Of a DNA stretch of 9,053 bases, positions 1 to 6,000 are shown piece by piece. The position numbers are program-made. The stretch lies in IMG/VR virus record IMGVR_UViG_2695420595_000001; one strand, 5' to 3'. Source of the stretch: a virus. Lineage: Duplodnaviria > Heunggongvirae > Uroviricota > Caudoviricetes. Each line of letters begins with the position of its first letter. Position 1 is the stretch's first letter.

Positions 1-3000
1 CAAACGTCAGCGAGCTGGTTGATATGGTTTACGAGTATTGCCGGAAGCGAGGCCTGTATCCGGATGCGGAGTCTTATCCGTGGAAATCAAACGCGCACTA
101 CTGGCTGGTTACCAACCTGTATCAGAACATGCGGGCCAATGCGCTTACTGATGCGGAATTACGGCGCAAGGCTGCCGATGAACTGACCTGTATGACAGCG
201 CGAATTAACCGTGGTGAGACGATACCTGAACCAGTAAAACAACTTCCTGTTATGGGCGGTAGACCTCTAAATCGTGCACAGGCTCTGGCGAAGATCGCAG
301 AAATTAAAGCTAAGTTCGGACTGAAAGGAGCAAGTGTATGACGGGCAAAGAGGCAATTATTCATTACCTGGGGACGCATAATAGCTTCTGTGCGCCGGAC
401 GTTGCCGCGCTAACAGGCGCAACAGTAACCAGCATAAATCAGGCCGCGGCTAAAATGGCACGTGCAGGTCTTCTGGTTATCGAAGGTAAGGTCTGGCGAA
501 CGGTGTATTACCGGTTTGCTACCAGGGAAGAACGGGAAGGAAAGATGAGCACGAACCTGATTTTTAAGGAGTGTCGCCAGAGTGCCGCGATGAAACGGGT
601 ATTGGCGGTATATGGAGTTAAAAGATGACCATCTACATTACTGAGCTAATAACAGGCCTGCTGGTAATCGCAGGCCTTTTTATTTGGGGGAGAGGGAAGT
701 CATGAAAAAACTAACCTTTGAAATTCGATCTCCAGCACATCAGCAAAACGCTATTCACGCAGTACAGCAAATCCTTCCAGACCCAACCAAACCAATCGTA
801 GTAACCATTCAGGAACGCAACCGCAGCTTAGACCAAAACAGGAAGCTATGGGCCTGCTTAGGTGACGTCTCTCGTCAGGTTGAATGGCATGGTCGCTGGC
901 TGGATGCAGAAAGCTGGAAGTGTGTGTTTACCGCAGCATTAAAGCAGCAGGATGTTGTTCCTAACCTTGCCGGGAATGGCTTTGTGGTAATAGGCCAGTC
1001 AACCAGCAGGATGCGTGTAAACGAATTTGCGGAGCTATTAGAGCTTATACAGGCATTCGGTACAGAGCGTGGCGTTAAGTGGTCAGACGAAGCGCGACTG
1101 GCTCTCGAATGGAAAGCGCGATGGGGAGATCGGGCTGCATGACTATCAAATCAAATACGCCAGCACACGACAAGGACTGCTGGCAAACGCCGCTTTGGCT
1201 TTTTGATGCACTGGATATTGAGTTTGGATTCTGGCTGGATTCGGCAGCGAGCGACAAAAATGCTCTGTGTGCTCACTGGCTAACTGAGGCCGACGACGCG
1301 CTCAATTCTGAGTGGGTAAGCCACGGTGCAATCTGGAATAACCCACCGTACAGCAATATCAGGCCGTGGGTGGAAAAAGCTGCTGAGCAGTGCATACAAC
1401 AGCGACAGACGGTAGTTATGCTTGTGCCAGAGGATATGTCAGTCGGATGGTTCAGCAAGGCTCTGGAGAGTGTCGACGAAGTTCGCATTATCACTGATGG
1501 ACGGATTAATTTTATCGAACCATCGACAGGGCTGGAGAAGAAGGGAAACAGTAAAGGCTCCATGCTGCTGATTTGGCGACCGTTCATCAGTCCTCGACGG
1601 ATGTTTACTACCGTATCCAAAGCGGCATTGATGGCGATCGGGCAGGGCGTCAGGAGGGCGGCATGAGGCGACAGCGACGAAGTTTCACCGACATCATCTG
1701 CGAAAACTGCAAATACCTTCCAACGAAACGCTCCAGAAATAAACGCAAGCCAATCCCAAAAGAATCTGACGTAAAAACCTTCAANNNNNNNAAAGCTAAG
1801 TTCGGACTGAAAGGAGCAAGTCTATGACGGGCAAAGAAGCAATTATTCATTATCTGGAGACGCACAAGAGCTTCTGTGCGCCGGACGTTGCCGCGCTAAC
1901 AGGCGCAACAGTAACCAGCATAAATCAGGCCGCGGCTAAAATGGCACGTGCAGGTCTTCTGGTTATCGAAGGTAAGGTCTGGCGAACGGTGTATTACCGG
2001 TTTGCTACCAGGGAAGAACGGGAAGGAAAGATGAGCACGAACCTGATTTTTAAGGAGTGTCGCCAGAGTGCCGCGATGAAACGGGTATTGGCGGTATATG
2101 GAGTTAAAAGGTGACCATCTACATCACTGAGCTAATAACAGGCCTGCTGGTAATCGCAGGCCTTTTTATTTGGGGGAGAGTAAATCGTGGTTGAGTTGAT
2201 TTTTTCTGCATTGAGGATTCTCGGTGCTATGTGGATGGTGTCGACGTTCATTGCGGTTGTCGGAAGTTTTGTCCGGTTGGTAGGCGAAGGTAAAGACCTG
2301 GTGGGTGTGCTGTTCGGTAGCATTCTCCTGTGGGTGATTATCGGTGTTGCGCCTGTCGCTGTAGCAAAAATGGCGTGGCGTTTTGTGAGTTGAGGTGACA
2401 ATGAAGCAAATATACATGCTTCGCAACGAAGCAATCAGAAACAACGCCATAGACGCAATACTCTCACTTCCGATCGACGACAAGTCACCTCACGAAGTCC
2501 ACATTAAAGAACCAAAGCGGAGCAATCCTCAAAACCGCCTTATGTGGGCGTTATTGCAGGACGTATCACGTCAGGTGCTTTGGCATGGACAGAGACTTGC
2601 GCCGGAGGACTGGAAAGACCTGTTCACTGCCCTGTGGCTTAAGACCAAAAAACTGGAGCAACGAAGTGTGCCTGGTATCGATGGTGGCGTTGTCATGCTT
2701 GGCGTGCGTACCAGCAAAATGCGAAAGGCCAGCATGACTGAGCTTATCGAAATCATGTTTTGGTTCGGCTCAGAGCGCAACGTGCGGTGGAGTGATGACT
2801 CCCGGCGAGAGTATGAATGGTCACAACGAAAAGGTAGGGCTGCATGACTATCAAATCAAATACACCAGCACACGACAAGGACTGCTGGCAAACGCCGCTT
2901 TGGCTTTTTGATGCGCTGGATATTGAGTTTGGATTCTGGCTGGATTCAGCTGCGAGCGACAAAAATGCTCTGTGCGCTCACTGGCTAACTGAGGCCGACG

Positions 3001-6000
3001 ACGCACTCAATTCTGAGTGGATAAGCCACGGTGCAATCTGGAATAACCCACCGTACAGCAATATCAGGCCGTGGGTGGAAAAAGCCGCTGAGCAGTGCAT
3101 ACAACAGCGACAGACGGTAGTGATGCTTGTGCCAGAGGATATGTCTGTCGGATGGTTCAGCAAGGCTCTGGAGAGTGTTGACGAAGTTCGCATTATCACT
3201 GATGGACGGATTAATTTTATCGAACCATCGACAGGGCTGGAGAAGAAGGGAAACAGCAAAGGCTCCATGCTGCTGATTTGGCGACCGTTCATCAGTCCTC
3301 GACGGATGTTTACTACCGTATCCAAAGCGGCATTGATGGCGATCGGGCAGGGCGTCAGGAGGGCGGCATGAGGCGACAGCGACGAAGTTTCACCGACATC
3401 ATCTGCGAAAACTGCAAATACCTTCCAACGAAACGCTCCAGAAATAAACGCAAGCCAATCCCAAAAGAATCTGACGTAAAAACCTTCAATTACACGGCTC
3501 ACCTGTGGGATATCCGGTGGCTAAGACATCGTGCGAGGAAAACAAGGTGATTGACTAAAATCGAAGTTACGAACAAGAAAGCGTCGAGCGGGCTTCAGTG
3601 TACACTGAGTGGATTCTATCTAGGCTTAGTGCATACAGAAGATTGCTGGTAAAGGACATGCCAGGCAAAACGATGAGGACTGATATTTATGAAAACATCT
3701 GATTTTTTACTGTTCTTGCATGCGGTACAGGAGGGGCTTTGACCGGGCATTTTATCGTGAATATTTTCACTTGGTATTTCTTTGGTTTTAGAGATTACTT
3801 CACTCGATGGGTTTTAAATAGTTTTCGTCGGTTTATCGGGTGCAAGCCTGATATGAGAATTTATAAAGATGAAAAGAATTGATTGTTAATGTGTTATGAG
3901 GTTTTTTGTTGTGAGTTTGTAATTTGCTTTTATAGAAATACATTAAGTAAATATAATTAAATATTCAAATTGTATATGTATGCGACATGTTGGTGTTTGG
4001 TCGCATACACTGTTGAATATTTGGCTAATGTTATATCAATGTAGAGTTAAAGTCTAACACAACATAGACTCTCTATATGCTAACGTCTTGACTATAACTG
4101 CAATTATTTTTTCATTAACTTCGTTACCAATGCTTAAACGCGAAATATCTTTCTCATGAGTTTTGTTCAAAAATATCAAGAAATTTTTCATTTCGTTTGG
4201 TAATGTATTTAGTTCTGTTTCTGAGAATCTTTTTTCATAAATCTCATCGATTTTATGTTTGCATGTTTCTGATTGTGATGTATTTAAAATGGCTCTTTCT
4301 CCTTGGGTACAGGAGTTTATAACTTCTTTCAGTATTTGTTTTTGGTCTTCTGGGGATGTTCTTTGTCCATTGAATGCGTAAGATATCCTGTCTTTTGTTT
4401 TGAAAAGTGGCATGGTTATATTTTTTGTATGCTGGAGGTCAACACAAAGAGCTATTGCCTGAGTATTTAGTATGTCCGGATTATGGGAGTAAGTTGATCT
4501 TTTCAAAGCATTAGCACTTGCTGATGCCCCTTCATATGGATTTTGATGAAATAATAGATTTAGTATGTTTACGATGAATAAAGACATCATTTGTGGTGGT
4601 GTGCCTTTCTCAAGAGAGCGCATGATTGCTCCCGATAAAGAGGACATCAGACTTAATCCTTGTGTTAATACCCGCTGGGTGGTTTTAAAGGCCGCTTCTT
4701 GCGATATAAATCTCTGAGCAGAATTTGGGTTATCAGAAGAACCATGTTTATAAGCTTTATACCATGAGTCACCTAATATAGCTAAGGCCAATGGTATATC
4801 AGCATAACTCACTCCCCTACCTATAGTTCTTACTATGCTACCTGTTTTAACTGCTCCATTAAGCATTAACAGTGGTGACATGGTTAGTAATGTACTTGTT
4901 AAACATAGAGTAAATCGTGCTATAACCGAACCTGTTATTTTTTTATTACTTATACAATACTTAACTTCATCTATTAGTTTAGGATATTGATAGAATATTG
5001 TTGGTGCATGAAATAAAGTTGCTGATAGTAAATCACCAAGTATGCGTACCTGGGTTATATCTAGTGATAATACATTACTTAAGAATGCTTCTGTATTTAT
5101 TGTTGGAGAAGGTGATGTATATAAAGATGGTTGTTGAGACTGTGAAGGTGATTTGTTATAGTCGCCATTAAAAAATAATGCCTGTATGAGCAAGTGAATG
5201 CTGATTCCGCCTCCGGCTCTGAACGCATATGGAAGTATCTGTTCGATTTTATTGTGTATGGCCATATAGGCTTTATAAAAACATCCTGACTGATTATATA
5301 CCTGATGATATTGATCGTTCAGAACTCTCATAAGATGGAGAACAGTTTCTGCACTCTCATTCTCTTTTGGTATAATTTCATGAATGATGCTGTCTAGTTG
5401 ATATTTTTGCTTGCATGTTAGGATTTTTGTAATTCTTTCATCGATTTCAATGCATATTGAATTATTTTTATCGGATAATAACAAATCATTTTCCTGTGTA
5501 TTTGTTTGTATCTCTTGTGGGATATTAATTACCACATCCGTACATGTTCTATCCACCTCATTTGTCTTTATGTTGTCAAGAAAATCATTTAACGTCAGTT
5601 GAGAACCCAATTCATTAATGTAGTCCAATGATGACGTAGAAGAGCTATTATCAAGAAAATCGTTCAGAGTGAGCTCGGAGTCGTTTCTTGTTATCGGATA
5701 TACATTTGTGGAAGCGGCTAATTTAATACTCCGGTTGCTGGAGGTAGAAGCTGTTGGTTCAGAGGTTGACGAACACTGCATGTCAATGCATACATAACCT
5801 TTATTTGAAGTTGAATTTGGAATCAAGTTTCCTCCTGAATTAATGGTTTTCCATAATACTAACTATTGATAAAAATATTTTGCATTTCATTAAAATAAAA
5901 AATCCCATGGAAAATATTTTTTGTTAGTTATTACATACAGCACATCAGGTCGTCAATATAGTCTAACTATAGTTATCACTAAAAACTTGCCTCGATTTTA

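Follow-up and report, generated by a model that had tools for sequence, protein, structure and literature searches.

False duplications in genome assemblies include heterotype-like cases across scaffold gaps, where a scaffold carries two diverged versions of a region next to each other. Among the listed hallmarks of such errors is a gap that separates the duplicated copies on one scaffold (Ko et al. 2022, Genome Biol 23:205, PMC9516828). A similar arrangement, with its false extra copies and chimeric ORF, is found in a stretch of 9,053 nucleotides (the window) from a Caudoviricetes record, IMGVR_UViG_2695420595_000001. Unlike the diploid haplotypes of that study, the sequences in the window appear to be paralogous modules that belong to two prophages of a haploid bacterial genome, so each copy would be real sequence and only their adjacency false.

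The gene content of the window resembles the nin region of lambda and other lambdoid phages. Taken separately, the contigs on either side of a short gap, contig A (1-1784) and contig B (1792-9053), carry P, Ren, NinB and NinE families in lambda order according to Pfam, PHROG, NCBIfam and RefSeq annotation. Contig B continues with NinG, a Ser/Thr phosphatase and Q, of which the latter two are called from sub-threshold NCBIfam matches, and NinG, without a family match, is named by RefSeq. Lambda has ninC and ninD between ninB and ninE, whereas both versions in the window have a Dam-type N-6-adenine methyltransferase gene there. Prophage B, the apparent source of contig B, further differs from lambda by an added ORF of 68 codons (ORF68) and an AT-rich island. 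These are ordinary, known nin-region genes, and their tandem duplication is not a real feature. With high probability, its appearance is an assembly artefact in which contigs of two different lambda-like E. coli prophages were joined over a gap of 7 Ns; given such a misjoin, the adjacency should not be taken as biology.

Gene content and repeat structure

Contig A starts upstream of the window, and the genes from P to the complete ninE are all on the plus strand. The window opens with the 3' part of P (1-341; Pfam Phage_lambda_P, E = 3.9e-19), which is named 'replication protein P' by RefSeq in relatives and is of the prophage A type, with the A allele at each of the 17 sites from 164 to 305 at which the two prophages differ. 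Next come the first copy of ren (338-628; PHROG 142, Ren-like exclusion protein, E = 5e-42; RefSeq 'protein ren') and a lambda-type ninB found in prophage A only (702-1142; Pfam NinB, E = 1.2e-54), which has no nucleotide match to the second copy. The first copy of the phage N-6-adenine methyltransferase gene (1139-1666; Pfam Dam, PF05869, E = 6.4e-65) is followed by the first 122 nucleotides of ninE (1663-1784), identical to 3368-3489, at the right end of contig A.

Contig B begins with the last 11 codons and the stop codon of P (1792-1827), assigned to the prophage B type from the preceding base in four complete genomes. The second ren (1824-2114; RefSeq 'protein ren', WP_000145894.1) precedes ORF68 (2187-2393), which encodes a hydrophobic protein matching PHROG 1165 (unknown function, E = 1.2e-34) and annotated 'hypothetical protein' in RefSeq; no match to it was found in Pfam, NCBIfam or PADLOC. 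A second type of ninB (2401-2847; Pfam NinB, E = 7.3e-49), the second methyltransferase gene (2844-3371; Pfam Dam, E = 8.3e-65) and a complete ninE (3368-3550; Pfam NinE, E = 4.7e-43) complete the module.

The AT-rich island of prophage B holds ORF590 and an HNH-AP2 gene. ORF590 has no match in Pfam, NCBIfam, PADLOC or PDB sequences, and its single-sequence AlphaFold model has a mean pLDDT of 34. A scan of 3400-6500 for promoters and terminators gave nothing that exceeded shuffled expectation.

The original prediction held that the sequence at 306-1784 recurs from 1792 onward. Comparison of 1-1784 with 1792-3700 by BLAST identified two collinear, ungapped blocks with similarity far above chance: 306-694 corresponds to 1792-2180 (389 bp, 97.9% identity, 8 mismatches, E = 0), and 1132-1784 corresponds to 2837-3489 (653 bp, 98.2% identity, 12 mismatches, E = 0). 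Between the centres, 695-1131 (437 bp) and 2181-2836 (656 bp), BLAST gave no nucleotide match. The recurrence therefore holds for the two blocks and not for 306-1784 as a single stretch. Likewise, the ninB genes differ, as had been proposed, but they are diverged homologues with 46% identity rather than close alleles. Two further differences between the copies were described correctly, namely two substitutions in Ren (G12E and N15K) and the presence of the 68-residue membrane ORF in the second copy only.

The predicted structure of the junction was also found: the only N-run of the window (1785-1791, 7 bases) lies exactly between the copies, the first of which breaks off within ninE, and the second of which opens with the end of P, given in the prediction as the last 12 codons and counted here as 11 codons plus the stop. 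As printed, the ninE fragment is in frame across the Ns with the P tail (ORF 1573-1827), so a gene caller would output a chimeric ORF. A tandem duplication should have a continuous, sequenced junction and copies of uniform and usually high identity. Here the junction consists of Ns, and flanks with 98% identity enclose an unalignable centre with diverged NinB proteins and a one-sided ORF68. An assembly gap between duplicated copies is the pattern that a misjoin is expected to leave.

Two loci in complete E. coli genomes

Each side of the gap matches a different prophage from end to end in the same complete genomes. The sequence 1-1784 is found as one BLAST piece, with 99.8-99.9% identity, in prophage A of at least 15 complete genomes among the matches listed. 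The gene order of this prophage is O-P-ren-ninB-methyltransferase-ninE-ninX-ninF...rusA-ninH, with ninX after ninE. The sequence 1792-9053 is found in prophage B, with 99.6-100% identity in at least 12 complete genomes and 99.4% identity in at least 13 more. In prophage B, the order is O-P-ren-ORF68-ninB-methyltransferase-ninE-ORF590-HNH-ninG-phosphatase-Q, and a full P precedes the match to contig B. At least nine genomes carry both prophages (AMSHJX01, ESBL 15, MB06102, 602687, CD45, 19AR0254, 22-245, 22-250 and PS1Thumoskin9).

In the four of these genomes that were examined (22-245, AMSHJX01, 602687 and CD45), the prophages are 1.5-1.8 Mb apart and on opposite strands. The resident prophage A equals 1-1784 with 2 mismatches, and the resident prophage B equals 1792-9053 with 2-3 mismatches and a change in the number of hexamer repeats. 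Unlike the window, these finished close relatives have one ren-ninB-methyltransferase-ninE module per prophage, at loci far apart, as expected if the gap joins sequences from different places. These results support the proposal that two distinct prophage nin regions were scaffolded together. The other option offered by the original prediction, that they were collapsed, does not apply to the region because both copies are present; collapse or swapping is seen at single sites only, with 463 alone looking collapsed and 1552 and 3257 swapped.

We also searched 5,426 complete E. coli genomes for the junction. With positions 1-3700 as query, the best places cover 88% of the query and span just 2,214 bp, corresponding to P plus the second copy, and none of the 5,426 genomes has both ninB types at one place. 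A 400-bp junction query from which the Ns had been removed had no single-piece match in this set, and its best matches are two pieces from an ordinary single-copy ren...ninE region. The junction of ninE to P and ren thus occurs in 0 of 5,426 complete genomes, which is expected of a misjoin and is not the arrangement in relatives that a tandem duplication would predict. An N-spanning junction pattern had no match in GTDB representative genomes or IMG/VR, where an N in the pattern may not match a stored N.

Contig ends, exchanged alleles and the origin of the join

In four complete genomes, prophage A has C and prophage B has T directly after 1784; directly before 1792, prophage A has T and prophage B has C. 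Both contig ends are flush with A/B variant sites, for which the joint chance is approximately 9e-4, and such ends are expected where an assembly graph branches. One point against this explanation is that only 31 nucleotides separate the variant at 305/1791 from the next one, so that a de Bruijn break directly behind the former would require k <=30; a break with such a k is plausible.

Mismatches to these genomes inside the duplicated region occur only at 463, 1552 and 3257, and each carries the allele of the other prophage. Positions 1552 and 3257 show a reciprocal swap of alleles, and the tail of contig A (1475-1784, with T at 1552) equals the reference prophage B in the allele comparison with the four genomes. 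Phase is held at SNP spacings of <=65 nucleotides and lost at >=78 nucleotides. Since all three mismatches carry the other prophage's allele, and one pair is reciprocal, they point to mis-phasing of near-identical repeats. These sites could also reflect real recombination. We considered whether the combination of C1474 and T1552 is unique to the window and rejected this idea, as 11 complete genomes share it (mostly O111 among those listed), as do 6 IMG/VR contigs. The contigs were found with a window-specific 87-mer (1470-1556), which has no match in GTDB representatives or JGI metagenomes; none of the six contains an N-run or agrees with the window as a whole. Because the combination occurs naturally elsewhere, the swap is not provable as an artefact from sequence alone.

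These observations suggest how the scaffold may have arisen. With high probability, contig A derives from one lambdoid prophage and contig B from a second, which most likely resides in the same E. coli genome. The prophages share P/ren and methyltransferase/ninE segments of ~98% identity that flank different ninB modules, and the assembler probably could not follow either path through these shared repeats. Contig A ends at the last common base before an A/B difference in ninE, and contig B begins at the first common base after an A/B difference at the end of P. Beyond 1784, the sequence of prophage A would run 'CTACACGG...' into ninX, and ahead of 1792 that of prophage B would be '...GCAGAAATC'. 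A scaffolding step probably put B after A with a gap of 7 Ns, giving the look of a tandem duplication. We infer that the join was made from read pairs, because a gap of 7 Ns resembles an estimated size more than a spacer of set length. In contig A, the final 310 bp are of the B type, so pairs from prophage B could link this tail to contig B.

The same artefact might have another cause, if the order of the contigs was taken from homology to a reference prophage or they were simply strung together with a short spacer of Ns, which we regard as rather unlikely. On any single reference lambdoid prophage, the two contigs would align to the P-to-ninE region and overlap there, so a reference-guided program would place contig A ahead of contig B with matching orientation, as is seen. 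With the layout in relatives, no true read pairs would be expected between ninE and a P tail downstream of it. However, fixed assembly spacers tend to have round lengths, for example 10 or 100, and an odd number such as 7 is more suggestive of a gap size that was estimated; through its B-type tail, contig A also offers a read-pair route to the join. It is improbable that the contigs come from two strains present together in a mixed culture or a metagenome, as opposed to two prophages on a single chromosome. Some complete genomes do have one prophage type without the other: contig A matches a single place in Z1322HEC0010, and the best 25 matches to contig A include neither 2013C-3264 nor ECO2947. 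However, the two prophages occur together in at least nine complete genomes, with 99.6-100% identity, making a single genome the simpler source. The exchanged alleles require both copies in one read set, which fits one genome and two strains equally.

A genuine tandem duplication within one prophage, in which illegitimate recombination between two resident prophages put a second, diverged ren-ninB-methyltransferase-ninE module directly behind a truncated ninE and the 7 Ns are uncalled real bases, is the least probable of these explanations and deserves very little credence. Lambdoid phages are mosaic and do recombine, the copies have the same orientation just 7 positions apart, and the reading frame runs from the ninE fragment into the P tail. 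Against this, ninE at 1784 and P at 306 have no homology to drive an exchange, and breakpoints that both adjoin A/B variant sites fit graph breaks and not a recombination joint. Moreover, the flanks belong to distant, opposite-strand prophages in the four relatives, the complete genomes offer no example of the junction or of both ninB types together, and the junction itself is an unsequenced run of Ns.

Implications for prophage annotation

Taken at face value, the scaffold would imply a false gene-family gain, with two copies each of ren, ninB and the methyltransferase gene in one prophage. It would also yield a chimeric NinE-P ORF, a hybrid prophage made of two elements, and errors in both the number of prophages and their boundaries. 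Such joins can be diagnosed cheaply and without reads by asking whether the sides of a gap lie at separate loci in finished relatives; further signs are contig ends at differences between repeat copies and mismatches that carry the other copy's allele. The value of this case is mainly in quality control, and the underlying biology is that of two known variants of the nin region.

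Layout of the two module copies

The window contains a single run of Ns (1785-1791, 7 bases), which divides it into contig A (1-1784) and contig B (1792-9053), each carrying one copy of a ren-ninB-methyltransferase-ninE module. Copy 1 includes the 3' end of P upstream of ren (338-628), a lambda-type ninB (702-1142), a Dam-type methyltransferase gene (1139-1666), and only the first 122 nucleotides of ninE (1663-1784). Copy 2 begins with the final 11 codons and stop of P (1792-1827), and continues through ren (1824-2114), a hydrophobic 68-amino-acid ORF (2187-2393), a second ninB (2401-2847), the methyltransferase gene (2844-3371) and a complete ninE (3368-3550).

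The original prediction described this layout accurately, but not as regards a single continuous repeat, because two blocks of 98% identity flank a non-homologous core. When 1-1784 is compared with 1792-3700, positions 306-694 correspond to 1792-2180 (389 bp, 97.9% identity, 8 mismatches) and 1132-1784 to 2837-3489 (653 bp, 98.2% identity, 12 mismatches), both blocks being ungapped and collinear. Between them, 695-1131 (437 bp) and 2181-2836 (656 bp) yield no alignment at the DNA level. The two Ren proteins differ at two residues, and the two NinB proteins share only 46% identity, although both belong to the Pfam family NinB. The 68-amino-acid ORF, on the + strand, separates ren from ninB and is specific to prophage B. 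Its product has two hydrophobic stretches and falls in PHROG 1165 (unknown function); Pfam, NCBIfam and PADLOC give no match.

Two lambdoid prophages of origin

The tandem duplication is almost certainly not real, and is best classed as an artefact: a scaffold join of contigs from two ordinary lambdoid prophages. The suspicion of an assembly join in the original prediction is thus supported, as the two sides of the gap match separate prophages and the junction occurs in none of 5,426 complete E. coli genomes. Among the matches listed, window 1-1784 is found in one piece, at 99.8-99.9% identity, in at least 15 complete genomes, in a prophage (A) with the gene order O-P-ren-ninB-methyltransferase-ninE-ninX-ninF-...-rusA-ninH. 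For window 1792-9053, the matches listed comprise 12 genomes at 99.6-100% and 13 others at 99.4%, here in a different prophage (B) ordered O-P-ren-ORF68-ninB-methyltransferase-ninE-ORF590(-)-HNH-ninG-phosphatase-Q. At least nine genomes contain both prophages, including AMSHJX01, ESBL 15, MB06102, 602687, CD45, 19AR0254, 22-245, 22-250 and PS1Thumoskin9. In the four genomes examined in detail, A and B lie on opposite strands, 1.5-1.8 Mb apart on the circle; in AMSHJX01 the matches are at 3,358,637-3,360,420 (-) and 1,785,645-1,792,918 (+), respectively.

Both ninB types occur at one place in 0 of the 5,426 genomes. The best places for a query of 1-3700 cover 88% of it but span just 2,214 bp, equivalent to 1-305, copy 2 and 3490-3700, and the uncovered 12% corresponds exactly to the lambda-type ninB core together with the Ns. 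For a 400-bp junction query, in which 1585-1784 was fused directly to 1792-1991, this genome set contains no match in one piece. The top matches are in two pieces spanning 787-955 bp, and represent ordinary single-copy prophages with ren near ninE.

The AT-rich island and variants of prophage B

Contig B carries an AT-rich island (~3600-6950) with 30-40% G+C, compared with ~50% in the surrounding nin region. It includes ORF590 (4054-5826, - strand), whose 590-amino-acid product belongs to PHROG 9230 (unknown function), is a "hypothetical protein" in RefSeq, and has no match in Pfam, NCBIfam, PADLOC or PDB sequences. In the phage collection, ORF590 is present only in the Stx1 phages AU6Stx1 and SH2026Stx1. 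The ~120 N-terminal residues are rich in Ser and Thr and contain repeats of the motif LTLNDFLDN, and a single-sequence AlphaFold model (mean pLDDT 34) is unusable. ORF590 looks like a moron of unknown function. The same AT-rich insertion includes the HNH-AP2 gene (6377-6943, +; 37-40% G+C), which is directly upstream of ninG, overlaps the ninG start, and has a 188-amino-acid product that combines an HNH_3 domain with a weak AP2 domain.

Between these two genes is a perfect hexamer repeat, (TATTTC)n, at 6143-6178, which has six units in the window; six complete genomes carry 5, 7, 7, 8, 12 and 13 units. This variable-number repeat could also be mis-sized by short-read assembly. The repeat encodes (Ile-Ser)n within a small ORF (6075-6317) that RefSeq marks as frameshifted in one strain. 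Separately, an IS91-family transposase is inserted in the 3' end of the methyltransferase gene of a B-type prophage (locus L002, NZ_CP074942.1, 7992-9544), leaving a methyltransferase fragment ahead of ninE; the strains with this insertion are 06_3044, 06_3288, 08_3418, 7_14_50A and 7_15_5C.

Contig ends, exchanged alleles and consequences for annotation

Both contigs end flush with sites that distinguish A from B. After 1784, prophage A has C (CTACACGG..., then ninX), whereas after the equivalent position, 3489, prophage B has T. The base just before 1792 is C in prophage B (...GCAGAAATC), and its equivalent in prophage A is T (window 305). Each of these states holds in 4/4 genomes. The final base of contig A is therefore the last one common to A and B, and the first base of contig B is the first one shared. 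This is the behaviour of an assembler halting at a fork between repeat copies, and the chance of both ends adjoining variant sites is ~9e-4, given local variant densities of 1.8% and 4.8%. A genuine recombination joint between ninE and the P tail would have no reason to fall on such sites, and ninE at 1784 and P at 306 lack homology. One accepted sign of false duplication is a gap that separates the copies within a single scaffold (PMC9516828), although the copies in that work are haplotypes, whereas here they are paralogous prophage modules in a haploid genome.

Only three window positions in the duplicated region disagree with the four complete genomes, and each is an A/B variant site occupied by the other prophage's allele. 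At 463 (contig A; G in reference A, T in B) the window has T in both copies, and 1552 (contig A; reference C, window T) and 3257 (contig B; reference T, window C) form a reciprocal swap. Phase is right over every inter-SNP spacing of 65 nucleotides or less, and is lost at four spacings of at least 78 nucleotides (81, 162, 78 and 233), a pattern that points to mis-phasing by a short-read assembler. Less probably, these alleles arose by gene conversion between resident prophages, in keeping with which C1474 and T1552 also occur together in 11 complete genomes (mostly O111 among those listed) and 6 IMG/VR contigs. At 7631, in the phosphatase gene, the window has a single C where 4/4 complete genomes have A, which may reflect either a genuine SNP or cross-talk from the homologue in a third prophage.

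As a consequence of the swapped allele at 1552, contig A is B-type in sequence over its final 310 bp (1475-1784). The false join could then have come about through prophage-B read pairs that tie this tail to contig B. Candidate causes of the join are read pairs, ordering guided by a reference, and a mixed sample.

As printed, the scaffold contains a chimeric ORF (1573-1827) composed of a ninE fragment, XXX and the P tail. Taken at face value, it duplicates the calls for ren, ninB and the methyltransferase and presents a hybrid prophage, and 1-1784 and 1792-9053 should be handled as separate contigs in annotation and in prophage counts.
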